Shown: positions 1,968 through 52,231, counted from the stretch's first letter. The stretch is 64,000 nt of DNA from Candidatus Dormiibacterota bacterium (GCA_963709585.1 CAVPXI010000004.1:170547-234546); one strand, 5' to 3'. Translations and numbers: made by a program. Notes: a model not told the origin generated them from the sequence alone.

Positions 1968-3606
1968 ATGACCCTCGCGCTGAGCGCGGTACTCTTCGGC
2001 GTCGGCGCGAACGGCCAGGTCGCGGCTTCGACAAAGAGCGGGGCGCTGAAGCCCTCGACGGTCGGCGAGCTCGACTGCAACGGCTACAGCCCGGCTCAGA
2101 AGTCGCTCCGAGCGATGACCTGCACCGACATCAAGGGCATTGCCGGCGTCGACAACCAGAACACCTGGGGCGGCAAGTTCTACGACAACGGCCAGTACAT
2201 CGGTCACGACGAGCCCGACACAACGTTCGTCTCGTCAGAGTCCCGGCTCCGGCAACAGCGTCACCTGGACGGAGAAACTTGGCTCCGATCCGACCGCTTT
2301 GCCCACAGTCGCGACCCCCGGGAAGGACGTCTCGCACTGGTTCGAGCTGTCGGTGGCCCCGTGGTTCTCGATGGCCCAGTGCGATCCAAACTCCTATCCG
2401 CAAGCACCCTGCACCCCCAACTCGGACGCCAACGCCCCGACGACCACATTCCCAGGCGGGGGATCGGCGTTCATGGAGATGCAGTTCTACCCGCCGGGCG
2501 ACGCGCCGTTCATCGACAGCGTGAGCTGTGACAACACCCATTGGTGCGCGGCGCTCAACATCGACAGCCTCGAGTGCACCAACGGCTTTGCCACGTGCAA
2601 CCCCAACTGCACCGAGCCGGTGAACTTCGCGTTCATCCAGACCAACGGCGTGCCGACCGGTCCGCCGAATCCGCAGACCACCAGTCCTGCCAAGTTCATC
2701 CCGAATGCGCACACGCTGCTCATGAACCCCGGAGACAAGATCGTGGTTCACATGGGGGATGCACCGGCGAAAGGCGGCGGAAACGCGTTCAAGGTCACCA
2801 TCGACGACCTGACCCTGCACAGGAGCGGGTTCATGCAGGCGTCGGCGGCCAACGGGTTCGCGAACACCTTGATGGCTGATTGCAGTGGCACCCCGTTCAA
2901 CTTCCAGCCTGAATACTCGACTGCGAAGAAGGGCAACATCACGCCATGGGCCGCACTCCAGACGAACATCAGCACCGAGTACGAGATCGGGCATTTCGAG
3001 GCATGCACCTCGGTGACCGACCCGATCGGCACCGGTGCGGGCGGATCCGGCGATCCTCTCTACAACAATTGCGTCGGGCCGTACAAGTCGACGGCCGACA
3101 CCGGCAGCCCGGAGGCCGACGCCGCGTGCTGGACCAAGGGAGACACGCACGGAACGCTCAACTCAACGCCTGATGAGGTCGCCGGCTGTCTTGCCAACAT
3201 CTTCCAGAACGGTGATCTCGATTTCGACGGAAGCGCCTACTGGGCCGAATGGCCGAAGGGAACGAGCGCGTCGACCTATCCCGCGAGCTTCGTGCAGGCC
3301 TTTCCGACCACGGGTGGGGCGCAGTACCCGAAGTTCTACTTCCAGACCGACATCGCCTTGAGCGAGAACACCTGCACGCCGACGACCTTGAGCGGCTGCA
3401 CGGTACCGCCGTCAGGTCCCGGCAATTTCTATCCGTACTGGAGTCAGACCAAGACGGGTGGGCAGTGTGTCCTCGAGTTCGGCAACGTCTCGGCGCTCGT
3501 CAACGCCTATGGAAAGGACGCGCAGTACGGGACCAACCAGTTCGCAACGATCGGCTACCCGGAGTTCGAAGGCCCGCTGCACAAGAACGCGTGCGCCACG
3601 AGTTAG
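1968..3606 (+). CDS. secreted Cys-rich protein of unknown function (frameshifted at ~2242)
   Basis: N-terminal signal peptide MTLALSAVLFGVGANGQVAAS in the 1968 frame. The body continues in the 2140 frame with many conserved Cys (CNPNC, CDNTHWC), no TM segments and a Thr/Pro/Gly-rich composition. The frames join at a CCC run (2242-2244). Confidence 0.6.
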
Positions 3607-3638
3607 GACTCGCTGATCGGCGACAGGTCATTCGCCTT

Positions 3639-3665
3639 GCCGGCTGAGCGTCGCGCTCAGCCGGC
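3639..3665. terminator. GC-rich hairpin between convergent genes (bidirectional terminator candidate)
   Basis: Perfect 12-bp inverted repeat gccggctgagcg/cgctcagccggc with a 3-nt loop, lying between the convergent secreted-protein and ABATE genes. Confidence 0.5.
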
Positions 3666-4237
3666 AGGTTGTGGCTGCGCGGTCGCGCCGGCGCGCTGCC
3701 GGGCTCGATAGGTCCGAGCCTTCTCGCGGGAGCCGCACACCCGCATCGAGCACCAGCAGCTGCGGCCGTTCTTGGAATGGTCATAGAACGCCCACCGGCA
3801 GCTGTCGCTCCGGCAGACCTTGAACCGCTCCCACGTGCCCATCAGGGTCGCCTCGACCAGCGCCGTCGAGATCATCCCGAGGAAGCTGTCGATCCCGCGG
3901 CAGTCGACCGCCAGGGTGGCTCCGTGTACCGAGAGGATCGGCCGCAACGGCGCGTGACCGAGGAGCTTCTCGAAGTTCTCACAGCCACGGCCGGATCGAC
4001 GTTCTCTCCTGTGTGTCCTTCGAGCAGATCCCGAAGCGCCTCCCGGGTCGCGATGAGCCGTTCCAGGTCCCGCTCGGAGACGGTGAGATCGGCCCCGGTC
4101 GCGTCATGCAGCCACTGGGCCGCCAGCGGAGCGGTGCGGAGCTCGTCAACCCCGTCGGGCATCTCGTTGCTGTTGATGAACTTCTGGACGAGCGCGAGCG
4201 ATCCCGGGGCAGGGTCGCGGGTTCCGGTGGTGGTCAT
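3657..4237 (-). CDS. ABATE domain / CGNR zinc-finger protein (putative stress-responsive regulator), frameshifted
   Basis: The N-terminal ORF (3872..4237) has ABATE-like LVQKFINS...REALRDLL. The C-terminal ORF (3657..3947) has the CGNR-type zinc finger CRSDSCRWAFYDHSKNGRSCWCSMRVCGSREKARTYR. The frames join near 3975-3990. Confidence 0.7.
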
Positions 4238-4280
4238 GTCAGGCGGTGCTCGCGATGGTCATCGTTACCAGTATACGCAT

Positions 4281-8183: not shown

Positions 8184-9030
8184 CTACCCCCAGACTTCGG
8201 CGGCGGTCTCGACGATGAGGCGGAGCTTCGCGACCTCCTCATCGTCGGTCAGGACGTTCCCTTCGACGGTGGCGGCGAATCCGCACTGCGGCGACAGGCA
8301 GAGTTGTTCGAGCGGCACGAACTTCGCGGCAGCCTCGATCCGTCGCTTGAGGTCGTCCTTCGTCTCCAGGCTGCCGCGTTTGGTCGTCACCAGCCCGAGC
8401 ACGACGTACTTGTCGTTCGGCACATAGCGGAGCGGCTCGAAGCCGCCGGAGCGAACGTCGTCGTACTCGAGAAAGAATCCATCGACGCCGAGCTCACCGA
8501 AGAGCGCTTCGGCAACGAAGTCGTAGCCGCCTTCCGCCACCCCTGAGGAGCGAAAGTTGCCCCGGCACATGTGGGTTGTGATCCGCATGCCCGGTGGCTT
8601 TGCGGCGAGGACGCGGTTGATGTTCCTGATGTACAGCTCGTGCTGATGCTCGCGGTCACCCCCCGAGCGATGCGATCAACTCGCGCTGGCGTGGATCGTT
8701 GAGATACGCGAGGCTCGTGTCGTCGAGCTGGAGATATATGCATCCCAGGTCACCGAGGGGGCGCACCTCCTCGGCGTACGCGGCGGTGAGATCGTTCCAG
8801 AATCGATCCATATCCGGGTACACCGACTGGTCGATCGCCGCGCGCCCGCCACGGTAATGCACCATGCTCGGCGACGGAATCGTGAGCTTTGGCGTAACAC
8901 CGTCGCTGACGTTGTCTTTCAGGTACCGGAAGTGGTCGGCGAAGATCGTCTCGCCGAGGCGGATGCGCTGGTTGATGCGCAATGCGGCAGGGGCGAAATC
9001 GAGAGTGCCGCCGTCGTTGAAGAACTGCAC
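8184..9030 (-). CDS. cobalamin-independent methionine synthase (MetE C-terminal domain) family protein, frameshifted
   Basis: Two adjacent ORFs (8656..9030 and 8184..8588) are reunited by removing one C from the C6 run at 8658-8663. That gives LIASLGGDREHQHELYIRNINRV...HMCRGNF, where HMC is the Zn-binding motif of the MetE family. The N-terminal boundary is uncertain. Confidence 0.65.
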
Positions 9031-9219
9031 GTGCAGCTTCTCGTCGGCCTGCGTGACACCGCGGTGATCGTCCCCGCGGACTTCTGGGCTCGCGCCTGCA
9101 TCAGCGCCGCGGGACGCAGGAGGCCGCCAACGTGGTCGGCGCGAAAGGGTGGCTCTGCGCGTCTGCTCATCGCTGTTGCTCGTCGATCCTGATCAGCGCG
9201 GTAGCGTACCCGATGCCGC

Positions 9220-12080: not shown

Positions 12081-12702
12081 GGTCGAGACAGTTACCGCTC
12101 CCGGACTGCGTAGGTCAGGTGGGTCACCCGCTGCGTCGGCTCCGCGGACCGGCTCCAGGGCCGCGCGGCCCGCGTCCACCCCCTCGAACAGGCGGATTCC
12201 GGAGCCGAACAGGACGGGTGAGAGCGCGATCGTGAACTCGTCGATCGGGCCGGCGTTCACGTACTCGAGGATCGTTGCGCCGCCGCCCGCGATGCGGACG
12301 TCCCGGTCGCCGGCGGCCTCGCGGGCCCGGTCGAGCGCGGGCTCGATGCCATCGTTGACGAAGTGGAAGGTGGTCCCGCCCGGCCGCTCCCAGGGTTCAC
12401 GCTTCTCGTGCGTCACGACGAAGACCGGCGTGTGGAACGGCGCCTCTTCCGGCCACATCTGCTCGCCGGCGTCGAACATCCGCTTGCCCATCACGTTCGC
12501 GCCGGTGCGCTCGAACGTCTCCCGCGCGATGTCGTTGTCGCGCCCTTCCTCGCCGCCCTCGCCGAGCTTCAGGTTCTCCCGGAAGAACCGTTGCGGGAAT
12601 ATCCACTGCTGCAGTTCCATCCACTGCTGCCCCCCCGAGGGACCCGGGCGCGATGAACCCGTCCAGCGACATCGACACGCTGAAGAACACCTTCCCGGCC
12701 AT
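12069..12702 (-). CDS. dihydrofolate reductase family protein (RibD C-terminal domain-like), frameshifted
   Basis: N-terminal ORF reads MAGKVFFSVSMSLDGFIAPGSLGG and the C-terminal ORF carries GKRMFD...FVVTHEK. They are reunited by deleting one C from the C7 run at 12630-12636. Confidence 0.75.
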
Positions 12703-14363: not shown

Positions 14364-14370
14364 CGCGCGC

Positions 14371-16909
14371 TTACTCGGTGGTGATCGCCCGAAGGATGTC
14401 GATTCGCGATGCGCGGATCGTCGGGAAGATGGCGGCGACGACACCGAAGACTCCCGCGATGACCGCGTAGATGATCAGGTTCTGGCCGGGGATCGCGATC
14501 TCGGTGATCCCGAGGTCGTGCAACGACCCGCTCACCGCGACGCCGAGTCCGAGCCCGACGGCCAGCCCGAGCACCGCTCCGAGCAGCGAGATGATCACCG
14601 ACTCCCAGCGCACCATCGAACGCGTCTGTGACCTTGTCATTCCCAGCGCTCGCAACAGGCCGATCTCGCGGGTACGCTCGAGAACACTCAGGATCAGCGT
14701 GTTCGCAATTCCCAGGACGGCGATGATGATCGCAAATGCGAGCAGGGTGTAGATCAGGTTGAGGAAGCTGTCCAGCGACGCCCCGACGAAGGTACGGTAC
14801 TCGGAGCGGCTCATCGCCATCAGCAGCGGAAATGCCTTCACATCCTGGTGGAGCGCCCGCTCCGCCTGAACTCGATGACACGCCGTTCGCGGCGTTGGCA
14901 AGCACGATTGAGTCACGCTCTGTAGGCACGTTTGGTGCCATCGTTGCGAGCGAGACCACATAGCCGCTGACCAGAGCGTTGGCGGTGTAGATGCCTCCGA
15001 TGCGAACGGGGATGCTCGCGCCCTGCGGGAAGTTGAAGGTCACGAGCTGACCGATGTGCACACCGGAGGCGTTCGCCTCGGTGGAGTCGACGATCGCCGT
15101 GTTCGTCGAGGCGACCGAGGACGCCGTTCCCGACACCATGCTCAGCGACAGCACGCTGCCGAGGTTGGCCGGATCGATGGCGGCGATGCCCTGCGAACTG
15201 CCCTTGATGATCACCGATGTGCCGCGGACCTCGGTCACATCCCGAAGGCTCGGATCCTTCTGCAATGCCTGCGCCGCCTGCGTGTTGAAGTCCGGGCCCT
15301 GGGTGAACACGATGAAGTCGGCGCGAAAGGCGCCTTCGATCGCATCGTTGGTGGAGACACGAACCGAGTCGGTGAGCACCGCGACGCATGTGACCAGCGC
15401 AAGGCCGATCATCAGCGCAGCTGCGGTGAGCGCTGTGCGGCGCGGATTGCGCCGAGCGTTCTGACCGGCGAGTATTCCGGGCGCTCCGCGAATGCGCGCC
15501 ACCGGCCATCCAAGCACGGTCGCGACCGGCACGACCAGCACTGGGGCAAGCAGCGCAACGCCGAGGAAGACTCCGAGAAAACCGGCGCCGATGAGCTGCA
15601 ACTTCGAACCCGCGGAGGTGAAGAGCCCGATGACCAGCGCGGCGCACCCGACGACGAAGATCACCACGCCGACCGCGATCCGGCGTCGCGGCAGGGGTTG
15701 GGTCTCGGGGAGTGCCTCTGACAGGGCGGCGACCGGCGGGATGCGCGTCGCACGCCGTGCCGGGAGGCTCGCCGCGATGACGGTGACGATGGTGCCGACG
15801 AGCACCGCGATGATGACGGTGCGAGGGAGCAGCGTCACGCCGCCGGTCGAGGCCGAGCCGAACACCGACAGCAGCGCTCGCGCAATCAGAATTCCGACAA
15901 GGAAGCCGAGGATTGACGCCACCAGCCCGGTCACCGCCGCCTCGACAAGCACCGACGTCATCACCTGGGCTCGAGTTGCACCGAGCGCACGCAGCAACGC
16001 CAGTTCGCGGGTGCGCTGGGCAACGAGGATGTTGAAGGTGTTGATGATCAGAAAGCTGCCGACGAACAGCGAGATGAAGGCAAAGACGAGGAGCGGTGTC
16101 CCGATGAACGTGCTGATCGTCGACTCGGTGCTCTGCTCCGCCGCCGCCGCCGCCTGCTGCCCCGTCTCCGCCACTGCGTACGTGGGAAGTGCTGCGGCGA
16201 TGTGCTCTCGGAGCACGACGTCCGTCACGCCGCTCTGCGCGCTGACCAGGATGCTGTCGTACTTGTTCTGACCTTCGAGGACGCGCTGCGCGGTCGACTC
16301 CGTGAACAGCGCGATGGTTGCCCCGGCAAGGTTGTCGGAAGATCCGTAGCCGGCGAGGCCGGTGATCGTGAAGTGCTCCTCGACTCCTCCCAGGAACACG
16401 ATGGGCAGCGACTGTCCGACTGCGAGGCCGTTCTTCGCGGCGGTGCCGGCATCCACGACGACATCATTCGGCTGCGTCGGTGCCGTGCCGCTGCGCAGGC
16501 GATACGGCGAGATCGCACTATCGGTGATCCAGTTGGCGCCGAAGGTTGGAGGCCCGTTGCCGCCGATCGGCTTGCCGTCGTGCCCGATCAGCGTCGCACC
16601 CTCTCGAAAGAGACTGCCGACCGCATCGTTGACGCCGGGTACCGCCCGCACCGTGGCCAGCAGCGAGGTCGGAATCGGATGGTTCTGGCCGCCGCCGATG
16701 CCACCTGAATCACCGGCGATCGGGCGACCGTGCACCGTCACCGCGACACCGGCGTTCGCCGTGGCGAAGATGCTCGTGAACGTCGCGTTGATCGTGTCGG
16801 TGAGGATGAACGTCCCCGCCACGAATGACACGCCGAGGATGACGGCAATCGTGGTGAGCGCGAGGCGGAGCTTGTGCGAGAGCAGGCTTCGCAGACTGAT
16901 CCCGATCAT
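14371..16909 (-). CDS. ABC transporter permease with two FtsX domains (MacB/YknZ-like), frameshifted
   Basis: N-terminal FtsX domain (LVAQRTRELALLRALGATRAQ) is in the 16909 frame. The second FtsX domain (LSVLERTREIGLLRALGMTRSQ...FPTIRASRIDILRAI) is in the 14961 frame. They join near 14856-14858 (CCC/GGG run). The tail of the 907-aa ORF is out-of-frame junk. Confidence 0.8.
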
Positions 16910-23301: not shown

Positions 23302-24196
23302 GACGCAAGCAGCGCGCCCGCGAGGACGGCGCCGAACACCAGTTGCAATCGCGTGATGCCGATGAGCGCGGGCACGAGCGCCCGACCTTCGGCGGTGCGC
23401 ACGGTGCGCAGTGGCGCGAACGCGAGCGGAATCGTCAGCAGCGTGAGCGCGACGAGCCACGGCAGCGTGCGAACCAGCGCACCCGCCGAGGGCAGAAGCA
23501 GCGCGATCACCACGATCGCCACGAGGAGGTTGCGGCTTCGCGGCGCACCGAGGCGCACCGCGAGGGTTCGCTTGCCCACCGCGCTGTCGGTGGGAATGTC
23601 ACGCAGGTTGTTCACCATCAGCAGCGCGCACGCCAGCAACCCGACCGGAATCGCGAGCCAGAAGACGCTCGCGTCGAGCCGGTCCTGCTGGACGAACGCG
23701 GTGCCAGCCGTGGCCACGAGACCGAAGAAGACGAACACCGAGATCTCGCCAAGCCCGCTCGCAGCGTATGGCTTCGGACCGCCCGAGTAGAGCGCCAGGG
23801 CGAGCACCGAGAGCGCGCCTGCGGCGATGAGCCAGGGTGTGGTGAGCAGGGCGAGGACGAGCCCGGCCACGGCGGCGATGCACACCGTTGCGATCGCCGC
23901 GGTCGCGACCGCGCGCGGTGGCGCGAGGCCCGACGCGACCAGGCGCCGCGGCCCGATCCGCGCCGCGGTGTCGACCCCGCGCACGCCGTCGAAGTAGTCG
24001 TTGGCGTAATTCACACCGATCTGCAGGGCGACGGCGACGACCAGGGCGAGCAGGGAGCGTGGAATCGAGACCGCGCTCCGGCCGGCCCAGCCGCACCGAC
24101 GAGCACGGGAACGATTGCCGCGACCAGCGTTCGCGGTCGCGCACCGATCCACCAGACGGCGAGCGGACCCGGCCGGGGGGCCGCCTCCGCGATCAC
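23298..24196 (-). CDS. menA: 1,4-dihydroxy-2-naphthoate polyprenyltransferase, frameshifted
   Basis: N-terminus [22 protein letters not shown] is in the 24631 frame. The body ([15 protein letters not shown], UbiA family) is in the 24152 frame. Inserting one C/G at the GGG run 24054-24056 restores a continuous MenA. GTG start overlaps the menB stop. Confidence 0.8.
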
Positions 24197-37455: not shown

Positions 37456-37985
37456 CTAGCGATTTGCCGGGGCCGCGGACTCGATGTCGAGTGTGTAGCT
37501 GAGCAGCACCATCCCGTCCGGTCGTGCCTGCGGGCTGGTGGGCGCGAAACCAAGGCTTGCATACAGCTGCTGCGCCGCCGTCATGACCGGGTCGGTGTCC
37601 AACGTCATGACCTGCTTGCCGTGGGCCCTCGCCGCATCGATGCACGCCAACATGAGGCGGCGAGCAATCCCCCGTCCACGATGGTCCGGGCTCACCCCGA
37701 GCATACGGACATGCGCCTCGTCTGGCGCCAGGGGGTCGGCCACCCCGGGGCTGATTCGCGAGTTCGAGCTCCAGGGTTACCGATCCCGCGATGACGCCAT
37801 TTTCCACCGCCACCAACACGATGGCCCGGCCGGCCCGGCTTCCCACGTCGGCGATTCTCGCCAGGTACGCCTCCCAGCCGGGCGAGTCAGGCGTCAGAAA
37901 CTCGCGGAAGGCGCGCACGGTCGAACTCGCCTGCGGCCTCGTACTCGAACTCGCGGATCGGGCGGATCTCGATCTCGTCAGGCAC
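37456..37985 (-). CDS. GNAT family N-acetyltransferase, two frameshifts
   Basis: Three ORF pieces assemble into a canonical roughly 176-aa GNAT: MPDEIEIRPIREFEYEAAGEF / VRAFREFLTPDSPGWEAYLARIAD...VTLELELANQ / PLAPDEAHVRMLGVSPDHRGRGIARRLM.... The joins fall at GG 37919-37920 and at the CCCC/GGGG runs 37743-37750. Immediately upstream of, and in an operon with, the WYL regulator. Confidence 0.65.
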
Positions 37986-38291: not shown

Positions 38292-41200
38292 TGCGATACC
38301 TCGAGGACGGCTGTCCCGTGTACACGGCCACGGACCTCTGCGACTACCTCGCGTGCGGGCACCTGGTCGCGCTCAAGCGGCGCATCGCTGCCGGCGAGCC
38401 GATCAAGCATGACCGGACCGCGCTCAGCGAGGTGCTCGCGAATCTGGGTGCGGAGCACGAGCAGCGCTATCTCGACGCGCTTCGGGCACGGGGCTTGACC
38501 GTCAAGGCGTTCGAGGACGACCGCGACCGCTACGCGAGTACCGCCGGCGAACTCCGCGCTCTTGAGGCCGAGACCGTCGAGGCGATGGCTCAGGGTTTCG
38601 AGGTCATCTATCAGCCCACCTTCTTCGACGGGCGCTGGATGGGTCGCGCCGACTTCCTGCTTCGAGTTCGAGACGCCGAGCGCCCGGTGGCCGTGGGCGT
38701 ACGAGGCGGCTGACGCGAAGCTCGCCCGCCGCGTGCGTTCTGAGGCGATCCTCCAGCTCTGTGAGTACTCGGCGCACCTGGAGCGGCTCCAGGGGACGCC
38801 GCCCGCGCTGATGCAGCTGATTCTCGGTGACGGCGTCGAGCATGCATATCGGATCGATGAGTTCTCCGCGTACCACGCAGCCGTGAAGCGGGACTTCGAG
38901 GTGGCGATGCTCGCCGAGCTCGGCAGCACGTACCCCGACCCGGTCGAGCACTGCAACACGTGTGGATTCGCCGCGCGCTGTGCAGCTCAGCGAAAACAGG
39001 ACGATCATCTTTCCCAGGTCGCGCGCATGCGGTCGGGTCAGGTGCTCGCGCTGAAATCCGTCGGCATCGCCACCATGACCGCGCTCGCTCAGGTTTCCGC
39101 CGACGTCGAGCCTCCGGCACGTATGAGCCCGACCTCCTTCGGCGACCTGCGCGCCCAGGCGGCGTTGCAGCACACGGGTCCTCACGCTGACGGGGCGCCG
39201 CGACACGAGTTGCTCGATGCATGGGAGGTCGGACATGGTCTGTGTGCGCTTCCGAGTCCGTCACCAGGCGATCTCTTCTTCGACATGGAGGGCGACGGCC
39301 TCGCACGCGACGTGCCGCTGGAGTACCTCTTCGGTGCGGTCGACATGCACGGCGTGTATCGAGCGTGGTGGGGCCACGACGACGCCGGCGAGCGACGTGC
39401 GTTCGAGGGGTTCGTCGACCACGCCATCGCGCAACTCGAACGTTATCCGGACATGCACATTTACCACTACGCCGCGTACGAGAAGACCGCACTCCGCCGG
39501 CTGATGAGCCGCCACGGCACCCGCGAGGAGGAGGTCGACCGCCTGCTCCGCAACGAGGTGCTCGTCGACCTCTATCGCGTGGTGCGACAGGGAGTGCGGC
39601 TGTCCACCAACTCGTACTCGCTGAAGAAGGTCGAGCGGCTGTACATGCCGGCACGCGAGGAGTCGATCGCGGACGCAGCGGGAAGCATGGTGATGTACGA
39701 GCGCTGGCTGAACAGCAGCCGCGATGGGGGCGATGGGGACGCCGCGCTCCTCGACGAGATCGCGATCTACAACGAGCGCGACTGCATCTCGACCGCGCAA
39801 TTGCGCGACTGGCTCGAGGCGCGTCGCATCGAGGAGGAGAGGCTTCGCGGCGCGCCCATCGAGCGTCCGGCGGTCGTCGAGCGCGACGTCAGTGAGGCCC
39901 TCGGCGCAAAGATCGTCGCGACCCAGGAGGTCGCGGCCGCACTGGTCGACAATGCCCCCCCGGACCCGGACCTGCAGACGGACGCCGAACGAGCGAGGTG
40001 GTTGCTGGCGCCGCTTCTGTCGTATCACCGGCGCGAGAACAAGGTCAATTGGTGGCGTCACTACGACCAGCTGGCGATGAGCCCGGAGGAGCTCGAGCGC
40101 GACACGTACGCGCTCGGTCCGCTCGAGATGATCGGCGCGCATGAGGAGGGCCGTCGCACCATCGAGCGGTACCGGTTCGAACCCCAGGAACACCGCGTCG
40201 GCCTCGGCGACATTCCGCTCGATCCTGAAACCGACGCGCGCTGGGCACCCGTCGCCGGGGAGGTGACCGAGCTCGAACTCGGCACGAGGAACAATCACAC
40301 TGTCGCGCACTCCCGGTCAGGCAGAGCGCGGAGCCGTCCGCTTTCTGATCCAGACGACACCGTTCGCGACCGATGCGCAGGAGGCGGCGCTCCTCGACCT
40401 CGGCCGCTGGGTCGTCGCCAACGGCCCGGATGCCGGCGGGCCCAATCGCGCCGGACGCGACCTGCTGCTTCGGCTGCCGCCGCGCCTGCGTGACGGCACC
40501 GATTGCGTGCTCCGGGGCGCAGGGGAGACGGCATCCGAGGCTGCGATACGACTGATCCTCGGCCTGCGGCGTGGATGCCTCCCGGTCCAGGGTCCGCCCG
40601 GAGCCGGGAAAACGCACATGGCCGCGCTGGCGGCACTCCGGCTCATTGCGAGGGGGCGCACACCGGTTGGTGTCACCGCCGTCACGCACAACGCGATTCG
40701 CACCCTGCTGGCGAAGATCGAGGAGCTGGCCCCCTCGCTTGGCATGACCGTGCGCATGCAACACCGCAAAGGGGACGGAACCGGTTCCGCCGCGATCCAG
40801 GTTGTCCGCAGCAACGAGATGGTCGAGGCGGCGGTCGTGGACGGCACCGTCGACGTCGTCGGCGGAACCTCGTGGCTCTTCTCTCGCCCGGAGTTCGAGG
40901 CGGGTTTCGACACGCTCATCGTCGACGAGGCCGGCCAGATGTCACTCGCGGACACGCTCGCGGTCTCGCGCGCCGCCCGCAATCTCGTCCTGGTGGGCGA
41001 TCCGCGACAGCTCGCCCAACCGCTCCAGGGGAGCCACCCACCGGGCGTCGGGGTTTCCGCGCTCGACCATCTGCTCGGTGACGACGTCACCATCGCTCCC
41101 GACCGCGGCGTGCTGCTCGACCTCACCTGGCGAATGCATCCCGACGTGAGTGCTTTCGTATCGCGTTCCTTCTACGAGGGACGGCTGGGCTCGGAACCGC

Positions 41201-42585: not shown

Positions 42586-42612
42586 AATACCCTTAGCGGG
42601 AACCACCGGACC

Positions 42613-43005: not shown

Positions 43006-43907
43006 CCGCCATCGTCGCGACCGGGCTCGGAATGCGGTACGGCAAACGTGTGGCGCTCCGCGACTGTTCGATGGAGATTCCTTCGGGAAGTGTCACTGCA
43101 CTTGTCGGCCCCAATGGGGCGGGAAAGACCACGTTGCTCCTACTCGCTGCCGGATTGCTCGCTCCAACCGCTGGAACGATCACTGTTCTTGACCGGACTC
43201 CCGATCGGGACGTGGAACTGATCTCACGAATTGGCTTCGTTGCGCAGGACGTTCCACTCTACGGGTCCTTCACCGTCGCCGAAATGCTTCGCTTCGGTCA
43301 AAAGATGAACCACCACTGGGACCAGCAACTGGCCCAGCAGCGGATGGAGAAGCTGCAAATCCCCCTGAATCAGCAGGTCCATGAACTGTCGGGCGGGCAG
43401 CGAGCGCAGGTATCGCTGGCTCTCGCCTTGGGGAAGAAGCCCGACATCCTGCTGCTTGATGAGCCCCTCGCCAGTCTTGACCCGCTGGCCCGGCGGGAGT
43501 TCATGCGCGTGGTGATGGAGACCGCCGCCGACTCGAAGATCACGATCGTCCTGTCATCCCACCTGGTCGCCGACCTCGAGCGTGTATGTGACCACCTTGT
43601 GGTCCTGTCCTCGTCGCGCACTCAGGTCGTGGGGGAGATCGGTACCCTGTTGGACGGTCACCGCGTTCTTGTGGGGCCTCATTGCGACTCCCGCGAGCCC
43701 GACATTGCGGGTGTCGCGTCCATCGTTGAGAGGACGGACTCAGAGCGCCAGACCAGCCTCCTGGTCCGCACCAATGGACCGATTCTTGATCCAAAATGGA
43801 TATCCGAACCAGTCACGTTGGAAGATCTCGTGCTTGCCTACCTGGCACGTCCGGGTGCGACCGCGCTTCCGGCCCCGCGAGCGATGACAGAGGCGTCCGC
43901 GTCGTGA
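43002..43907 (+). CDS. ABC transporter ATP-binding protein
   Basis: Walker A GPNGAGKTT, signature LSGGQRAQVSLA and Walker B ILLLDEP. Confidence 0.85.
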   Translation: MTAIVATGLGMRYGKRVALRDCSMEIPSGSVTALVGPNGAGKTTLLLLAAGLLAPTAGTITVLDRTPDRDVELISRIGFVAQDVPLYGSFTVAEMLRFGQKMNHHWDQQLAQQRMEKLQIPLNQQVHELSGGQRAQVSLALALGKKPDILLLDEPLASLDPLARREFMRVVMETAADSKITIVLSSHLVADLERVCDHLVVLSSSRTQVVGEIGTLLDGHRVLVGPHCDSREPDIAGVASIVERTDSERQTSLLVRTNGPILDPKWISEPVTLEDLVLAYLARPGATALPAPRAMTEASAS

Positions 43908-44905
43908 TGTGGTTGACGTGGCGCCAACATCGCGCACAGTTCATCGCGGGTGTGGTTCTCGGCGGTGTGCTGGTTGCCTTTCTGGTGGTCACGGGCTTGG
44001 GAATGCGCTCCACCTATGACTCCCTGGGTGTTGCCACGTGCCTGGCCGCTACGCCGGCGCGAGACTGCACCATGCTGTTCAGTCAATTCCAAAACCAATA
44101 CTCGTCGTTGCAGTTCCTGATCCCGCTCTTCCTCCTGCTGCCCGTACTGCTCGGAGTCTTCTGGGGCGCGCCGTTGATTGCGCGTGAAGTCGAGCAGGGG
44201 ACCTACCGGCTGGCCTGGACACAGTCGGTGACCCGCCGCCGCTGGACCGTCACCAAACTCTTCATTGTCGGTTCAGTCGCTGTGATTCTTTCGGCCATAT
44301 TCTCGGCGGTATTGTGGTGGTGGGCAGACCCGCTGGTGGGGGACCCATCCGTCCAGCGCTTCAAATACGGCATCTTTGACTTACTCGGGGTTGTACCGGT
44401 TGCCTACACACTGTTCGCGGTTGCACTTGGTGTCGCTGCTGGAGTGGTGCTGCGGCGTACGACCGTCGCCATGGTGGCAACGCTCTGCGGGTTTGCCGTT
44501 GCGCGGCTGTTTGTGGAATTGGTGCTGCGCCCAAATTACCAACGCGCGGTCACGGCCGCTTACCCTCTCAGCTTCAGCTCCAAGACCGGTCCACCCGATG
44601 GCGCGTGGGTTCTCGCCGAGAACACCGTTACGGCGTCAGGGTTCGCCGTGAGTGGTGACTCCAACGGAGTCAGCCTCAGCTATGTCCCGATGCAGCACAT
44701 CTGTCCCTATCTCACTCCTGTTTCGGCACCTGGTTCCGCGGCGATGCAGCAATGCCTCACCCAGAACGGAATTCACGTCGTCGCCACGTTTCAGCCGTAC
44801 GACCGCTACTGGTTGTTCCAGGGGATCGAGTCCGCGCTGTTCATCGTCCTCGCGATCGCGCTGGCCCTGTTCTCCATTTGGTGGGTGCGCAGACGGGTCC
44901 GATAG
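43907..44905 (+). CDS. ABC-2 family transporter permease
   Basis: Multi-TM protein in the gntR-ABC operon (ytrA-type module). Confidence 0.6.
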   Translation: MWLTWRQHRAQFIAGVVLGGVLVAFLVVTGLGMRSTYDSLGVATCLAATPARDCTMLFSQFQNQYSSLQFLIPLFLLLPVLLGVFWGAPLIAREVEQGTYRLAWTQSVTRRRWTVTKLFIVGSVAVILSAIFSAVLWWWADPLVGDPSVQRFKYGIFDLLGVVPVAYTLFAVALGVAAGVVLRRTTVAMVATLCGFAVARLFVELVLRPNYQRAVTAAYPLSFSSKTGPPDGAWVLAENTVTASGFAVSGDSNGVSLSYVPMQHICPYLTPVSAPGSAAMQQCLTQNGIHVVATFQPYDRYWLFQGIESALFIVLAIALALFSIWWVRRRVR

Positions 44906-44911
44906 CCCGTT

Positions 44912-45709
44912 TCACGCCTGCGGCGGTGTCACCCGGAGGCGGTCGATGAACAAGCCCTGCAGCGAACGGCCGATCGGCCCCCGCTCATCGTAGAGCCTGC
45001 TGTGCGCGACGCCGACACCGTGCCGATCGACATCGGTGCTCGCGTCAAGGCAGATCCATTCGCCCTCGGGCTGACGGTGCACATACACGGTCAGATCGGT
45101 GTTGATGAACATGAACTGTTGCCACGACAGCGCCGACGAGACGCCGTTGCCGAAATCGGCCGCGGCAAGCGTGCGCTGCAGCGGCGTCGGCGTCTGACCC
45201 GCGATCAGCGGGATCGCGAGCCGCATCCACACGGTCGCGGGCCCCGGCTCCATGAACGACCCACGCGCGTAACGCATCTCGACACCGGTGCGGTGAAACG
45301 CGGGATCGTCACTCTCGGCGACATGTGCGGTCAACTCGGCCGGCCCCGGGAACGGCACCTCGAGCGGCGGCTGCTCGCCGAGGTCGAGGTCCGCGATGCG
45401 CATGCGCCACGCCGTCGCTCGGCAGAGTTCGGTGTTGCCGTCGGTGAGTGTCGCGGTCACCAGCTGGACGCGGCGGCCTTCGCGCTCCACGCGGGCGGAG
45501 ACCTCAACGGGTCGGAGCGGCACCGGCCGGAAGATCTCAACGGTGATCCGTACGACCGCCATGGGCGCCTCGGTCCGAAGCGCCTCCATGGCTGCGGCCA
45601 TGAGCGCTGCCGGCGGGCCGCCGTGCATGGCGCCGCGATCCCAAGGCCCCCGCGCATGCTCGCTGGGCACGTAGCCGCGTTTGTGGGGAGTGAACAGCGC
45701 GTCGGGCAT
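44912..45709 (-). CDS. acyl-CoA thioesterase (double hotdog, TesB-like) family protein
   Basis: Hotdog-fold motifs (HGGPPAAL...). Internal start at MPDALFTP. Confidence 0.55.
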   Translation of the reverse strand: MPDALFTPHKRGYVPSEHARGPWDRGAMHGGPPAALMAAAMEALRTEAPMAVVRITVEIFRPVPLRPVEVSARVEREGRRVQLVTATLTDGNTELCRATAWRMRIADLDLGEQPPLEVPFPGPAELTAHVAESDDPAFHRTGVEMRYARGSFMEPGPATVWMRLAIPLIAGQTPTPLQRTLAAADFGNGVSSALSWQQFMFINTDLTVYVHRQPEGEWICLDASTDVDRHGVGVAHSRLYDERGPIGRSLQGLFIDRLRVTPPQA

Positions 45710-45812: not shown

Positions 45813-46638
<826 letters not shown>

Positions 46639-46640
<2 letters not shown>

Positions 46641-47706
46641 GGCCGGCATCGAGGTCACCGGGACCGCTCAACGGCGCTCCTGGGAGTCTGTGGGGCTGCC
46701 CGAGGTCGAGCGTGTTCGTCCCGGGCTCTGGTCGGTTCCCGTCCCGCTGCCGAACAACCCGCTGCGCTACGTCCTCGTCTACCTGCTCGAGCTGGACGCC
46801 GGCGTCGCGGCCATCGACACCGGCTGGAGCACCGAGGAGGCCTGGAGCACGCTCGTGGCCGGGATGGCGGTGGCCGGGTATGCCCCAGCTGATGTCCAGG
46901 CGATCCTGGTCACGCACATCCATCCCGACCACTACGGGCTTGCCGGGCGGCTGCGCGAGGCCTCGGGGGCGTGGGTCGCGCTACATCCGGCGGACGCCGC
47001 GCTGATCCCGGCTCGCTACGGCCTGGGTATCGACGACCTGCTCGCGAACATGGATGCCCTGCTCATCGACGCCGGCGTCCCCGACGAGGTGCGGACGGAG
47101 CTCACCGTCGCTTCGATGGGGATCCGCGAGCTCGTCGCCGCCACCGAACCGGACGTGCTCCTTGAGGACCGGGTCAGGGTGCCCCTGCCGGGATGGGACC
47201 TCCTCACCCTGCACACGCCCGGCCACTCGCCCGGTCATGTCTGCTTCCACGATCGCAAAGGCAGGCTGCTCTTCAGCGGCGACCACGTGCTCCCGCGGAT
47301 CAGTCCGAGCGTGGCGCTGCACGTGCAGCAGCCGATCAATCCGCTCGCAGATTTTCTCGACGCACTGCGCCGCGTGCGCGACCTGGACGTCGACGAAGTG
47401 CTGCCGGCGCACCAATGGCGGTTCCGTGGCCTGGACGCGCGTGTCGACGAGCTGCTCGACCACCACCGCCACCGGCTCGACGAGACCCATCAAGCGATCA
47501 GCGACACGCCGGGGCTCACCTGCTGGGAGACCACGCTCCGACTGCGTTGGTCCCGAGACTGGTCGCAGATCGTCGGCTACATGCGGCGCGCGGCGGTGGG
47601 CGAGACGCTCGCGCACCTGGTCCTCCTCGAAAGTTCGGGACGGGCGCGCCGGGACCAGGAGCGGCCCGTGCACTGGTACCCGGCGGGTGACTCTTCAGGC
47701 GGATGA
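46639..47706 (+). CDS. MBL-fold metallo-hydrolase
   Basis: HIHPDHYG and HTPGHSPGH motifs. Internal start MAGIEVTG. Confidence 0.75.
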
Positions 47707-49143
47707 GGGGGCGCGGACGGCCGATCCCGGCCAGGTCACGCTGATCACCCCGGCGAGAAGCGCCACGGCAACCAGCAGCACGGCGACCGACGCGATCCCT
47801 CGTCCCGAGGCGATCACGAGCGACGTCAAGGCGACGCCAAGCGCAGCCCCGAGACCGCGCGCCATGTTCAGCAGTCCTCCGGCCGCACCGGCCCGCTGCA
47901 AAGGAGCCGAGAACATGGTCGCCGCGTTGTTCGCCGCGACGAACAGCCCCAGACCCGCCCCGGCGACCGCCAGCGCGACCACGGTCAGGTCGTCCCGGCT
48001 CGCCGGGACGGCAAGCAGCGCCATTCCGGCGGCCGTCAGGAGCATGCCGGCGCCGGTCGGCACGCGGGATCCGATCCGGTCTCGGATCGCTCCGCCCAAC
48101 GGAGCCACGACCATGAGTGCCACGGGAAGCGCGCTGAGCTCGAGTCCCGCCTTCACCGGGCCGATGCGGCCCGACCGCTCCAGGAAGATCGGCACGGAGA
48201 CGAGGCAGCCGAAGAGGACCACGTACGAGAGCAGCGCCGCGATCGCCCCGGCCACGAAGGGCGGGATGCGTATCGACGCCGCGTCGACCACCGACCCGAT
48301 CGCGCTCCGCTGTCGCATCACCGCGCCGACAACCAGGATGCAGGTGAGGCCGATGAGAACAGGCTCGGCCCACACCGGCGTCCCCGATTGGGCGGCGAAG
48401 GACAGGGCTGCGAGAACCGCCGCCGGGATAGCCGCGAGGAGCAGGGTGCCGTAGGGATCGATGCGGCTGTCCGGGTCGTGCTGCGTGCTCCTCGGCAGCA
48501 GAAACCATCCCAGCGCCAGGCCGATCAGACCGATCGGGATGTTGACCAGAAAGATCAGACGCCAGCCACCGAGCGCGGTGAGCACGCCGCCGAGGGCCGG
48601 CCCGACGCTGAGGCCGGCCGCCTGCGCCGCGCCCTGAACGCCCAGCCCGGTGCCGAGCCGAGAGGGGGGAAGCACGTCGCGGATCAGCGCGAACGAGTTC
48701 GCCTGGAGCATCACGGCGCCGATCGCCTGCACGAGTCTGGCCAGCACGAGGATGCCGAGCGACGGAGCGACCGCGCAGGCGGCAGACCCTGCCACGAAGA
48801 TGCCGAAGCCATAGGTGTAGAGCAGCTTCCGACCGACCCGATCGGCGATCCTGCCCACCGCCGCAACCGTCCCCGCGAGGACGAGCACGTACACGAGCAC
48901 CACCCATTCGACACTGGCGATGGATCCGTGTAGGTTTTTCCCGATGACCGGAAGGGCTGTGGACACGATGCTGGCGTCGAGCTGGCCCATGAAGGCGCCG
49001 ACGCAGACCGTCCCCACCGCGAGCCACGGGGCGGCGTGCAATGCCCTGATGCGCGCCGGACGTCGCGGTTCGGTGAGGATGCGTGGGGTGGCGCGGCGCG
49101 GTCCCTCGGGCTCAGACACGGGTGGTCGGGCCTCCGCGCTCAA
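47695..49143 (-). CDS. MFS transporter (14-TMS drug:H+ antiporter, EmrB/QacA-like)
   Basis: 482 aa with 14 predicted TM segments and the MFS motif GRIADRVGRK. Confidence 0.8.
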   Translation of the reverse strand: MSAEARPPVSEPEGPRRATPRILTEPRRPARIRALHAAPWLAVGTVCVGAFMGQLDASIVSTALPVIGKNLHGSIASVEWVVLVYVLVLAGTVAAVGRIADRVGRKLLYTYGFGIFVAGSAACAVAPSLGILVLARLVQAIGAVMLQANSFALIRDVLPPSRLGTGLGVQGAAQAAGLSVGPALGGVLTALGGWRLIFLVNIPIGLIGLALGWFLLPRSTQHDPDSRIDPYGTLLLAAIPAAVLAALSFAAQSGTPVWAEPVLIGLTCILVVGAVMRQRSAIGSVVDAASIRIPPFVAGAIAALLSYVVLFGCLVSVPIFLERSGRIGPVKAGLELSALPVALMVVAPLGGAIRDRIGSRVPTGAGMLLTAAGMALLAVPASRDDLTVVALAVAGAGLGLFVAANNAATMFSAPLQRAGAAGGLLNMARGLGAALGVALTSLVIASGRGIASVAVLLVAVALLAGVISVTWPGSAVRAPSSA

Positions 49144-49320
49144 TCCGGGCCGGTGTGACCGCCATCACCCCATCATCCAGCACGGCAGCGCCCTCGACCG
49201 CGCGGTCCGGCGGCACATGTCTCCACCCGGTGACGGAACGATGGTCGCCGAGATCAGACCGCTCTGGCGCTCCGATACTGCGATGACCCACCTGTCCACG
49301 CGCCCGGGAGGCCGCAACCC

Positions 49321-49710
49321 TTGACCCAGCAGCGCATCCTTCTCGCTGACGACGAACCGCGCCTCCTGCATGTGGTCGGTCTGTATCTCAGCATGGAAGG
49401 ATTCGAGGTGCGAGAGGCGTCGGATGGGACCGAGGCGCTGTCGATGCTCGAGACCGAAGAGTTCGACCTCGCCATCCTCGATGTGATGATGCCGGGGGTC
49501 GACGGGATCGAGGTGTGCCGGCACATCCGCTCGCAGCCGGGCACGCAGTCGATGCCGGTTCTGGTGTTCACCTCACTTTCCTCGGACAAGGATGTGGAGC
49601 GGGCCCGTCTGGCCGGCGCGAATCACCTGATCACCAAGCCGTTCAGCCTGCCGGGGCTCGGGGCGGTGGTTCGCTCGTGCTTCGAGGACGCCCCAGCGCT
49701 CACCGGCTGA
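49321..49710 (+). CDS. single-domain response regulator (receiver only)
   Basis: Acidic pocket DDE, phospho-acceptor D (ILDVMMPGVDG), then conserved T/S and K (ITKPF). TTG start. No histidine kinase or output domain is nearby. Confidence 0.7.
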   Translation: MTQQRILLADDEPRLLHVVGLYLSMEGFEVREASDGTEALSMLETEEFDLAILDVMMPGVDGIEVCRHIRSQPGTQSMPVLVFTSLSSDKDVERARLAGANHLITKPFSLPGLGAVVRSCFEDAPALTG

Positions 49711-49752
49711 CAGCGCCCGCGCGCTCGCTTTGTCGCCAGGCGCCGCCCGGCC

Positions 49753-50514
49753 TCAGGCGATCGCCCGGCTGAAGCGCCGCGCGCCCACCAGGACTCCGAC
49801 GACCGCCAGCGCGGCCATGATTGCGAGGCCCTTGAAGACGTCGGGGTCCGAGCCGTGCCCGTTGAAGACATCGCGAGCGGCAGTGACGGCGTAGGAGAGC
49901 GGGTTCGCCTGCGCGACGTGCTGCAGCCACTCGGGTGCGAGCTGCAGGGGGAGCAGCACGCCGCTGAGGAGCAGCAGCGGCAGCGAGAGCGTGAAGATGA
50001 GCGGCGCGTAGGAATCCTCGCTCTTCAGCGCGAGCGCGGCCGCGTAGGCGAGCGACGACATGCCGAGACCGATGAGCGCGACCAGTCCGAGCATGACGAA
50101 AACGCCTGACACGGTCGGTTGCAGGCCGAAGGGAATCGACAGCAGCAGCAGGATCATCGATTGCACCACTAGCGTCAGGATGTCGCGGAGCGCGCGCCCG
50201 AGAAGGAGTGCGAACCGGCTCACCGGCGTCACCCGGAAGCGCTCGATGACACCGGCACGCAGCTCCGCGATCAGTCCGAAGCCGACGCCGCTCGCGCCGA
50301 ACAGCCCGAGCTGGATGAGCAGCCCCGGGACGAACACGTTGTACGCACCCCCGGATGGGAAGCCGCGCGTCTCGGTCAACGATTTGAGCAGGGGTGCGAA
50401 GAGGACCAGGTAGAGCACCGGCTGGAGCACGCCGATCGCAACCCACGCCGGGTTGCGCAGGAACACGAAGAGATATCGCTGGAACATCAGCCACGTGTCT
50501 TTGAGGAATTTCAT
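49753..50514 (-). CDS. ABC-2 type transporter permease
   Basis: 253 aa, 6 TM segments. Downstream of the ABC ATPase in the same operon. Confidence 0.75.
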   Translation of the reverse strand: MKFLKDTWLMFQRYLFVFLRNPAWVAIGVLQPVLYLVLFAPLLKSLTETRGFPSGGAYNVFVPGLLIQLGLFGASGVGFGLIAELRAGVIERFRVTPVSRFALLLGRALRDILTLVVQSMILLLLSIPFGLQPTVSGVFVMLGLVALIGLGMSSLAYAAALALKSEDSYAPLIFTLSLPLLLLSGVLLPLQLAPEWLQHVAQANPLSYAVTAARDVFNGHGSDPDVFKGLAIMAALAVVGVLVGARRFSRAIA

Positions 50515-50526
50515 GTCGATGCGCTC

Positions 50527-51471
50527 CTATGCCGCGTCGCGCAGCGAACGCCCGGTCTGACGCAGAAACACGTCGTCGAGGCTTGGACGGGTCAGCGACA
50601 GCGACGCGAGGGCGATGCCCTCGGCGTCGAGCGCGCGAAGGATCTGCGGCATCGCAGTCTCGCCCCGGTCGACGTAGAGGCGGACGACGCCGTCTCCCGA
50701 GGTGGCTTCGCGGACGAACGCCTGGCCGCGCAGCAGCTGGAGCACCTGGTCGCTCGCGTTGTCGGTGCCCACGATGACCACGTCGCCGGCGACCTGGCGC
50801 TTCAGCTCGTCGGGTGTGCCGAGGGCGACGATCCTGCCGTGATCGATGATCGCGATGCGGTCGCAGAGCGCGTCGGCTTCCTCGAGGTAATGGGTCGTGA
50901 GGAAGACGGTCGTTCCGGTGTCGCGCAGTGCGCGCACCTCGTCCCACATCCGAGCCCTGCTCTGCGGATCGAGCCCCGTGGTGGGCTCGTCCAGGAACAG
51001 CAGTTGGGGCAGGTGCATAAGGCCGATCCCGATGTCGAGCCGGCGTTTCTGTCCGCCCGAATATGTCTTTGTCGGCCTGTCCGCGCAGTCGGCGAGCTCG
51101 AGCGCGGTGATGAGCTCGGCGGCCCGCTGCTGGGCTCGCGCCTTGGTCATGCCGTAGAGCCGGCCCTGAATGATCAGCTCGGCGCGACCCGGAATCTCAG
51201 GCGCGCTGCTCCCCTCCTGACTCACGTAGCCGATCTCGTAACGCACCTTGGCCGGGGCGTGGAGGAGGTCGAAGCCCGCGACCGTCGCCTCGCCACTGGT
51301 CGGCGGCAACAGCGTCGAAAGCATGCGCAGCGTCGTCGTCTTGCCCGCGCCGTTGGGCCCGAGAAATCCGAAGATCTCGCCCTTCCTGACGTCGAGGTCG
51401 ACTCCGGCGACGGCTTCCACAGCTCCCTTGCGCGACTTGAAGGTCTTGCGCAGATTGTGGGTCTCAATCAA
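50527..51471 (-). CDS. ABC transporter ATP-binding protein (DrrA-like)
   Basis: Walker A GPNGAGKTT, signature YSGGQKRRL and Walker B LLFLDEPTTGLD. Confidence 0.85.
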   Translation of the reverse strand: MIETHNLRKTFKSRKGAVEAVAGVDLDVRKGEIFGFLGPNGAGKTTTLRMLSTLLPPTSGEATVAGFDLLHAPAKVRYEIGYVSQEGSSAPEIPGRAELIIQGRLYGMTKARAQQRAAELITALELADCADRPTKTYSGGQKRRLDIGIGLMHLPQLLFLDEPTTGLDPQSRARMWDEVRALRDTGTTVFLTTHYLEEADALCDRIAIIDHGRIVALGTPDELKRQVAGDVVIVGTDNASDQVLQLLRGQAFVREATSGDGVVRLYVDRGETAMPQILRALDAEGIALASLSLTRPSLDDVFLRQTGRSLRDAA

Positions 51472-51540
51472 TTCGTGTCCCCTCCGGGATCGCGCCCTTG
51501 CGCGATTTGAAAGTCTTTCGCTGGCCGCTGATCTGAATGA

Positions 51541-52231
51541 TCAATTCGTATTCCCCGCCGGAGACGTGTGGAGCAGCTTGGCGAGGTGGTTTTCCCGATG
51601 GCGATTGCGACGCTCCGAGTCGGCGGCGTGCATCGCCTCGAAATGCGCTCGGATCAGCTCCTCGTTCCACACGAGCGCGCCGGACTGCATGTCCGCGGTG
51701 ATGGAGTCGGATCCACTCGATCTCGGCCGCGGCGAGGGCGATCGCATGCTCCAGCTCGAGCAGCACGAGCCTCGGAAGGCCAAGGTCGTCCTGGGCCATC
51801 CTGAGGGTGGCCTCGAGGCCGGTCACCCGTACCCGGAGGCTGACGGTGCGGCTTGCCAGCGCAATCTCTGCGCGCTCCTGGGTGATGTAGCCGAGGAGGC
51901 CGACAGCGACGCGGAACACGGGCGTCTCATCGACAGGCGTCGAGAGCAGGTCGGCAAGCCAGTTCTCGAGCTCCTCGCTGCCCTCGGGCGTGATCCGGTA
52001 GACGGTGCGCTCCGGTCGCCGGCCCTCGCGGCTCGTCTCGATCGGCTCGATGTACCCGGCCAACTCCAACTCCTCGATCGCCCGGTAGAGGGTCCGGGTC
52101 TTGCCCACTGCGTACGCCTTGTGGCGCTCCTTGAGCAGGCGCTGGATCTCGTACGGATGGCAGGGCTGCTCGCTGAGCAGGCCGAGCGTGGTCAGGGCCA
52201 CCATGTCTTTGGGCTGTGTGCGGATTTCCAT
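51541..52231 (-). CDS. PadR family transcriptional regulator, frameshifted near 3 prime end
   Basis: PadR wHTH (PCHPYEIQRLLKERHKAYAVGKTRTLYRAIEELELAGYIEPI). The C-terminal helical domain continues in the 51783 frame (DSITADMQSGALVWNEELIRAHFEAMHAADSERRNRHRENHL). The frames join at about 51708-51714. Upstream of the ABC exporter. Confidence 0.7.

Follow-up and report, generated by a model that had tools for sequence, protein, structure and literature searches.

In a 64,000-nt stretch of a genome assembly from Candidatus Dormiibacterota (GCA_963709585.1, CAVPXI010000004.1:170547-234546; hereafter the window, meaning the whole stretch that was analyzed), numerous protein-coding genes are split between two reading frames by single-base lesions. 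The split genes are very probably intact in the organism, and the lesions appear to be long-read consensus errors that are linked to a short motif, CGAGTC, and probably to a DNA modification, along with a few errors in homopolymer length. The lesions are specific to the window, can be repaired by one base, are tied to the motif, and turn up again in further assemblies of long contigs. As a flag of sequence quality the finding is correct and useful; it does not describe a biological feature.

The window has a G+C content of 68%, rising to about 0.85-0.9 at the third codon positions of its genes (GC3), and it encodes menaquinone biosynthesis, metal ABC transport, RecQ, MsrA/MsrB, redox proteins and similar functions. 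The nearest database proteins are annotated proteins of Candidatus Dormibacterota metagenome-assembled genomes (MAGs). Frame breaks were checked with a map of G+C at third and second codon positions in each frame, and with Pfam searches of stop-to-stop open reading frames (ORFs). Lesion positions were set by pairwise and multiple alignment with contigs of relatives (Table 1), and frame switches were also located by tblastn.

An initial annotation of the window had named 14 split sites, and these are real frame breaks: Pfam families continue across frames, and alignments with the relatives' orthologues switch frame there. Specifically, SelR matched over 1-48 and then 48-115 in adjacent frames, and ABC_tran over 1-39 and then 36-137. 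The same arrangement was seen for ABATE followed by zf-CGNR, the two FtsX halves of a MacB-type permease, the N- and C-terminal halves of a GNAT domain, an RNase_H_2 nuclease followed by an AAA_11/12 helicase, and PadR. Most of the exact positions given initially were displaced when the window was aligned to close relatives; the true sites are listed in Table 1. Three further lesions were found beyond the initial list, namely an extra A at 1937, a deletion of 137 nt at 9060 and a second frame break in the RibD-like gene at about 12142. In total there are about 17 lesions in 51 kb, and the consensus carries about one single-base insertion or deletion (indel) per 3 kb. Indels of both signs do occur, as had been reported, with insertions predominating (at least 12, versus 2 deletions). 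Conserved genes are indeed affected, including msrB, menA and the gene for a metal ABC ATPase.

The view that these breaks are assembly errors rather than pseudogenes is supported by intact relatives, by one-base restoration, by the ratio of nonsynonymous to synonymous substitution rates (dN/dS), and by recurrence across assemblies. Every testable indel was absent from five short-read-style contigs that are 95-97% identical to the window at the nucleotide level (L081, L087, L140, L141 and L145). In L081 every gene of the syntenic region is intact, those for the ABC ATPase, MsrB, the GNAT protein, a 1154-aa nuclease-helicase and PadR included; the FtsX permease is intact in L087 and a secreted protein in L145. 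Continuous GH3, ABATE-CGNR, MetE-like and menA genes are supported by L083, L086, L089, L091 and L092. The earlier statement that a one-base edit restores a continuous protein was borne out with respect to the proteins, for which full-length, stop-free ORFs equal to those of orthologues were obtained (for example, 1154, 845 and 133 aa); it was not with respect to the edit, which mostly lies outside G/C runs. The merged secreted protein is 95-96% identical to the protein P0259, with an ungapped join. Intact genes, 16 in number, gave a dN/dS of 0.118 (range 0.04-0.19) between the window and L081, and the five lesioned genes, at 0.163, lie within that range; GC3 on both sides of the breaks was 0.82-0.93.

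Genuine pseudogenisation, in a decaying or host-dependent Dormibacterota lineage that is losing genes, would fit the high density of lesions, the occurrence of two lesions each in the GNAT, RibD-like, MetE-like, nuclease-helicase and secreted-protein genes, and a 137-nt deletion and a lost stop codon that resemble real mutations. Nevertheless, we regard it as highly improbable. The repaired genes contain no in-frame stops, GC3 is equal across the breaks, and dN/dS is unrelaxed; conserved genes are affected, relatives at 95-97% nucleotide identity lack the lesions, and identical lesions are found in phylogenetically separate long contigs while closer relatives are intact. Mycobacterium leprae has a pseudogene-rich, reduced genome, and genomes of its type share with the window a high G+C content and many conserved genes that appear to be interrupted. 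Unlike such genomes, the window shows neither in-frame stops nor dN/dS relaxation, has kept its codon bias, and carries lesions that are repairable by one base and absent from near-identical relatives. Programmed frameshifting and phase variation are not supported either: the sites are spread over 12 unrelated genes, both housekeeping and accessory, and inspection by eye, without a motif search, revealed neither a simple-sequence repeat nor an obvious slippery heptamer at the shift sites that were read.

The initial annotation had attributed the splits to short G/C homopolymers. As a general cause this was not upheld, because such runs account for 2 of about 16 single-base lesions, these being a run of six C at 8659-8664 and a run of seven C at 12630-12636. 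Runs of at least three G or C number 1924 in the 64 kb, or about one per 33 nt, so that a short run near any frameshift is expected by chance. Of the five named runs that could be compared with an intact relative, four (2242 in the secreted-protein gene, 7061, 24054, and 29773 in the ABC ATPase gene) have the same length in both; at the fifth, 36247, a substitution separates TCCC in the relative from CCCC in the window, the surplus base being the T at 36254. At 11 resolved sites (2237, 7067, 14869, 24089, 29775, 36254, 37763, 37924, 38667, 40276 and 51706) the indel lies outside any run of three or more. It is thus very unlikely that an unpolished long-read or flow chemistry miscounting short G/C homopolymers explains essentially all of the splits. 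The six-C and seven-C lesions do sit in the longest runs, the former supported by four relatives and the latter by one-base repair, and it is unlikely to be chance that two of the nine runs of at least six bases in the window coincide with lesions; the other seven (13312, 17779, 19820, 24175, 27074, 39955 and 48664) are not at any of the detected frame breaks. Known errors of long-read and flow chemistries in homopolymer length (PMC9262707; PMC8011154) therefore resemble these two lesions, but not the remainder of the roughly 16, and the CCC and GGG runs named initially are not indel sites.

Seven of the insertions in the window fall in CGAGTC, and five of these convert CGAGTCGA to CGAGTTCGA. 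At 36254, 37763 and 38667, CGAG-TCGA has become CGAGTTCGA, and at 37924 and 40276, TCG-ACTCG has become TCGAACTCG, which is the same change on the opposite strand. The tetranucleotide TCGA is touched by 10 of about 15 single-base events. In the alignments with L081 and L087, an indel was found at 5 of 51 GAGTC/GACTC sites and GAGTT appeared in the window at 6 of the 51, whereas GAATC/GATTC sites showed no indel and one substitution among 38. Methylation of GANTC of the CcrM/HinfI type was rejected as the cause, since GAATC/GATTC sites are unaffected. Within the region aligned to L081, the T is duplicated at 4 of 5 CGAGTCGA sites. In an unbiased scan of all 6-mers and types of change, comprising 12190 tests, insertion of T in AGTCGA, GAGTCG and CGAGTC gave some of the strongest signals (p of about 3e-8 to 2e-7), C-to-T change in CGAGTC had a p of about 2e-5, and CGAGTC was the most-changed 6-mer overall. 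A change of A to C in CAGAGG scored alongside these insertion contexts and was later judged to be natural: the changes of CAGAGG to CCGAGG, GCACTG to GCGCTG and GCCGCA to GCCGCG are most likely natural changes towards G or C, of a kind to be expected at rare codons ending in A or T when GC3 is about 88%.

The motif was also altered without any frameshift, through change of CGAGTC to CGAGTT at six sites (Table 1). Two of these substitutions, at 39609 (D to N) and 41672 (R to Q), alter residues that are conserved in 22 of 23 orthologues. Five private residue changes at conserved columns of the nuclease-helicase shared no common motif, and so were not counted as errors.

The most telling result is that identical changes recur in other assemblies. 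The msrB insertion at 36254 is also found in L138, and the insertion at 40276 in L082, L136 and L138; the latter is absent from L081, and from L137, in which there is no motif at this position. The substitutions at 39609 and 41672 are also present in L137. The species represented by L136, L137 and L138 are only 75-82% identical to the window in the nuclease-helicase protein, and L082, which has the 40276 insertion, lacks the changes at 29775, 36254, 37763 and 37924. In intact orthologues, mostly from short Joint Genome Institute (JGI), NCBI and ENA contigs, the ELDSARG frame at 40276 is unbroken, and the D at 39609 is kept in all of them except the long-contig P0018. Inheritance cannot produce a pattern in which distant long contigs share identical changes and closer relatives are intact. 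A technology-linked miscall that is triggered by a motif, by contrast, can produce recurrence across lineages.

Alternatively, CGAGTC might be a hypermutable motif, at which a methylated C deaminates to T or provokes slippage, and the changes would then be true recurrent mutations. Deamination of methyl-cytosine characteristically leaves C-to-T changes at one fixed position of a motif, and recurrence at identical sites could in principle be mutational. This explanation seems scarcely credible, however, as deamination makes no one-base insertions and it is implausible that frameshifts would become fixed repeatedly in msrB and other conserved genes; moreover, the changes are found only in Flye-style long contigs, and not in the compared short-read-style contigs of the same clade.

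We return to consensus error as the best explanation. The window would be part of a long contig assembled from long reads of an uncultured Candidatus Dormibacterota bacterium without short-read correction. The dominant class of error depends on context: at CGAGTC, and especially at CGAGTCGA, the final C is read either as TC, giving a frame-shifting insertion, or as T, giving a substitution. Most of the other insertions likewise touch TCGA or TCGAG, and a minority of errors are length errors in G/C runs of five or more. The most probable cause is a DNA modification at a motif that includes GAGTC or TCGA, which would distort the nanopore signal such that basecaller and polisher miscall a fraction of the sites. 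The scanned ORFs and called genes of the window revealed no DNA methyltransferase, although no exhaustive search of the window was made.

Precedents exist for errors of this kind. In one benchmark, about 70% of the errors in nanopore consensus sequences were attributable to methylation motifs (PMC6591954), and it has been found that only some occurrences of a motif are affected, as are bases adjoining the modified base (PMC12392509). Nanopore-only Flye assemblies with a single round of Medaka were used in a large soil MAG project (PMC12313526). The errors in the window resemble those described at Dcm CCWGG, Dam GATC and CcrM GANTC sites (PMC6591954; PMC12392509) in that a fraction of the occurrences of one short motif is hit, the errors survive polishing and recur across assemblies that share the motif, and substitutions fall at or near the putatively modified base. 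They differ in that CGAGTC/CGAGTCGA and TCGA(G) are not among the examples in those studies, that their commonest outcome is a one-base duplication rather than a substitution, and that GANTC overall is unaffected, GAATC and GATTC being clean. A reading that we find slightly easier to doubt than to accept, and put forward tentatively, is that the miscalls are the footprint of a modification conserved across the Dormibacterota clade at a CGAGTC/TCGAG motif, one with which the basecalling and polishing models behind these assemblies evidently could not cope. As a separate point, the deletion of 137 nt and the loss of the stop codon are possibly real.

Several observations weigh against an explanation by motif-linked consensus error. 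GAGTC, CGAGTC(GA) and TCGA(G) are all compatible with the data, about 16 events being too few to fix the motif. With respect to strand, the C-to-T changes are wholly one-sided: all fall at sites where the window carries the motif on its minus strand, and none where it is on the plus strand (6 versus 0). The insertions at 7067 and 51706 create a TCGA- or GAGTC-like string instead of falling in one, and the motif was not seen at the lesions at 24089, 29775 and about 12142. The nanopore platform, the lack of short-read polishing and both the existence and the identity of the modification are matters that we infer. Neither the deletion of 137 nt at 9060 nor the loss of a stop codon at 46626 is of a type usual among consensus errors, and L087, although a short-read contig, has a 1-nt deletion of its own in a gene whose window copy is unbroken. 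This last observation indicates that natural frameshift variants exist in these populations. The deletion in L087 shortens CCC to CC opposite window position 18325 and breaks the gene for a 353-aa membrane protein (17741-18802 in the window), a gene that is present in the window and L087 and absent from L083-L085.

These observations bring in a mixed origin, with most of the one-base indels being artefacts and a few lesions being real strain-level mutations. The candidates are the 137-nt deletion, the stop loss in an alpha/beta-hydrolase gene, and perhaps the lesions of an accessory RibD-like gene. The deleted segment of 136-137 nt is present in every relative compared (L083-L086, L089, L092 and L108), and the deletion is bordered by imperfect short repeats with microhomology; the MetE-like homologues are 373 aa long, versus 327 aa for the merged window model. 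The hydrolase had been listed initially as a possible further indel at 46630. Its lesion proved instead to be a plain G-to-C substitution in the stop codon, which extends the reading frame by 88 codons, to 46892, overlapping a gene for an MBL-fold protein. The RibD-like gene is accessory and carries two lesions, and a natural 1-nt frameshift is seen in L087. On the other hand, long-read metagenome assemblers can also yield deletions and substitutions at low coverage or with mixed strains. Each of these two lesions, the deletion and the stop loss, could be a true variant of the strain or an artefact of assembly, neither position being covered by a second assembly, and we consider a mixed origin possible, yet clearly less probable than not. 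If the deletion at 9060 is real, the MetE-like gene is a true pseudogene.

Table 1. Lesions and substitutions in the window, followed by the contigs used for comparison. Positions are those of the window; nt, nucleotide identity.
Position	Strand	Feature	Window versus relative	Named initially at	Remarks
1937	+	Extra A, secreted-protein gene, close to its 5' end	TCGAAGCC versus TCG-AGCC in L145	Not listed
2237	+	Extra A in CGAGTC, secreted-protein gene	GTCAGAGTCCC versus GTC-GAGTCCC (GTCAGAGTCC versus GTC-GAGTCC) in L145	2242
3968..3975	-	Frame break in a single regulator gene, separating its ABATE and zf-CGNR halves	GAGAACTTCGAG versus GAGG--CTCCAG in L083
7067	-	Extra base, GH3 (NagZ-like) lipoprotein gene	Minus strand CCTCGACCC versus CCTC-ACCC in L083, L086 and L092	7061
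8659..8664	-	C6 run (G6 in the coding sense), MetE-like gene, one base surplus	GGGGGG versus GGCGG in four relatives
9060..9061	-	Junction of a 137-nt deletion, MetE-like gene		Not listed	About 46 codons lost, including the conserved TDGEFRR region
12138..12150	-	RibD_C-like gene, second break, at about 12142 and close to the 3' end			Removal of one base gives a typical ending, ...VTHLTYAVRER*
12630..12636	-	C7 run, RibD_C-like gene			With one base removed, MAGKVFFSVSMSLDGFIAPGSLGG runs on into QQWMELQQW...
14869..14870	-	Extra T in CGAGTC, MacB/FtsX permease gene	CGAGTTCAGG versus CGAGT-CAGG in L087 (intact)	14856
24089..24090	-	Base lost, menA	Minus strand GGC-TGGG versus GGCGTGGG	24054	Base kept in L089, L091 and L082
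29775..29776	+	G lost, metal ABC ATPase gene	CAGCCC-AGCG versus CAGCCCGAGCG (CCC-AGCG from CCCGAGCG)	29773	G kept in L081 and L082
36254	-	Extra base, msrB	Plus strand CGAGTTCGAAC versus CGAG-TCGAAC	36247
37763	-	Extra base, GNAT gene	GCGAGTTCGAGC versus GCGAG-TCGAGC
37924..37925	-	Second extra base, GNAT gene	GGTCGAACTCGCC; relatives GGTCG-CCTC...
38667	+	Extra T, TM0106-type nuclease-helicase gene	TTCGAGTTCGAGAC versus TTCGAG-TCGAGAC	38683
40276..40277	+	Extra A, nuclease-helicase gene	GCTCGAACTCGG versus GCTCG-ACTCGG	40312
46626..46628	+	Stop lost, alpha/beta-hydrolase gene	TCA versus TGA in L081 and L137	46630
51706..51707	-	Extra base, PadR gene	Plus strand GGAGTCGG versus GGAG-CGG (L140) and CGA-TCGG (L081/L141)	About 51710
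28985, 29995, 37948, 39609, 41672, 45333		CGAGTC to CGAGTT (plus GACTCG to AACTCG)	Compared with L081		No frameshift
28289-53749		Contig L081	About 95% nt, syntenic		JGI short-read-style contig
13911-18694		Contig L087	97.2% nt		Short-read contig
260-3609		Contig L145 (NCBI GCA_049283735.1)	95.2% nt
47.4-51.8 kb		Contigs L140 and L141	94-97% nt		L140 is the closest short-read contig at 51706
1-27.9 kb		Contigs L083-L086, L089, L091 and L092	78-88% identity
		Contigs L082, L136, L137 and L138			0.14-1.3 Mb contigs with Flye-style names, one ENA assembly series

Correction of the individual lesions gave the following protein models. The corrected secreted-protein ORF is 550 aa, the intact ORF in L145 being 563 aa. 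The protein (window 1915-3606; about 560 aa) is Cys-rich and has no Pfam domain, and it belongs to a large conserved family of unknown function, with 4173 matches at E<=1e-10 and homologues of 550-600 aa in Dormibacterota, Actinobacteria and soil metagenomes. The break at 3968-3975 corresponds to either +2 or -1 bases; ABATE and zf-CGNR form one 190-aa protein in the relative, and the corrected window model holds both domains. In the NagZ-like gene, the signal peptide of the lipoprotein is encoded upstream, in the other of the two frames, and the corrected ORF of 397 aa includes the signal sequence. In the same part of the window, an apparent frameshift in a luciferase-like monooxygenase near 7340 was rejected: the L083 gene was called too long, at 360 aa, and the product of the window gene begins with MKFGVVLPGG.

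For the MetE-like gene, tblastn placed the frame switch at 8659-8663, and the lesion at 8659-8664 is a genuine homopolymer-type lesion. The second lesion of this gene, at 9060, is covered by no second assembly, the L082 contig ending near window position 9750 as estimated from record coordinates. That contig (L082/L139; ENA ERZ25039506 contig_44619, 139 kb) aligned to 21351-42135 and 47321-51702 of the window with 96-98% identity. It is far noisier than the window, with 44 private one-base insertions in 13.9 kb, and its gene calls present RecQ, MsrB, ZnuA/ABC and others in fragments.

In the RibD_C-like gene, correction at the C7 run extended the RibD_C match from 29-177 to 2-177 in one stretch; it is plausible that this is a homopolymer lesion. 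The second site, at 12142, is approximate, as no relative has the gene, and the join there lies outside the Pfam coverage, with the RibD_C match ending at 177 of 197. This gene, which is dihydrofolate-reductase-like (window 12082-12716), lies between genes for Fur and a cation-efflux protein. It is absent from all eight relatives that cover the junction and appears as an accessory insertion in the lineage, with two frame breaks.

Residues 1-679 and 681-845 of the FtsX permease are encoded in different frames, and the corrected ORF of 845 aa has the size seen in relatives. The menA lesion lies outside a homopolymer, and the corrected product matches UbiA over 2-230 in one stretch. After correction, the ABC ATPase matches ABC_tran over 1-137 at 112 bits. 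The corrected MsrB has 133 aa, contains the canonical 11-letter protein segment, and matches SelR over 1-115 at 170 bits. The corrected GNAT gene has an ORF of at least 172 aa with a continuous GNAT match, the intact protein of the relative being 175 aa. Removal of the bases at 38667 and 40277 from the nuclease-helicase gene gave an ORF of 1154 aa with no stops, and a protein search with this repaired model found intact 1154-aa orthologues at 95, 90, 89 and 84% identity.

The corrected PadR ORF is 229 aa, and that of the relative, which is intact, is 241 aa. The insertion at 51706 was rejected as an error within an existing GAGTC site, because L140 reads GGAG-CGG and the insertion therefore creates GAGTC. 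From the start of the neighboring ABC-ATPase gene to the end of PadR, the window has about 81 nt (51487-51569), versus about 30-35 nt in L081, L140 and L141, and the alignments break there; the C-terminus of PadR accordingly differs from those of the relatives. At 42467-44920, about 2.4 kb of the window corresponds to about 0.5 kb in L081. This segment, with a lower G+C content (0.65), a lower GC3 (0.75-0.80) and an ABC-ATPase-like ORF inside it, may be a strain-specific insertion. Frame switches on the GC3 plot at 53500 and 54006 were rejected as lesions, being ordinary boundaries between separate complete genes (AhpC/TSA, Grx-TrxR and MDMPI).

The warning given initially, that annotation of this sequence will over-call pseudogenes, stands: about a dozen false calls are to be expected, among them msrB, menA, the metal-uptake ATPase and the MacB/FtsX permease. 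Completeness estimates, pangenomes and metabolic reconstructions of this uncultured phylum would be distorted by such errors, and the problem is clade-wide rather than confined to one record, given that identical changes are found in several public long-contig Dormibacterota assemblies. Homopolymer-aware fixes would miss most of the errors, so that a methylation-aware polisher, homology-guided polishing or short reads are required for repair before annotation. The motif also yields silent residue errors (D to N, R to Q) that are invisible to frameshift scans. The error signature is at the same time a cheap hint at a clade-wide DNA modification motif; if the proposed link to modification is true, the pattern of errors would give a partial view of the methylome of an uncultured phylum, or of an unusual modification in it.

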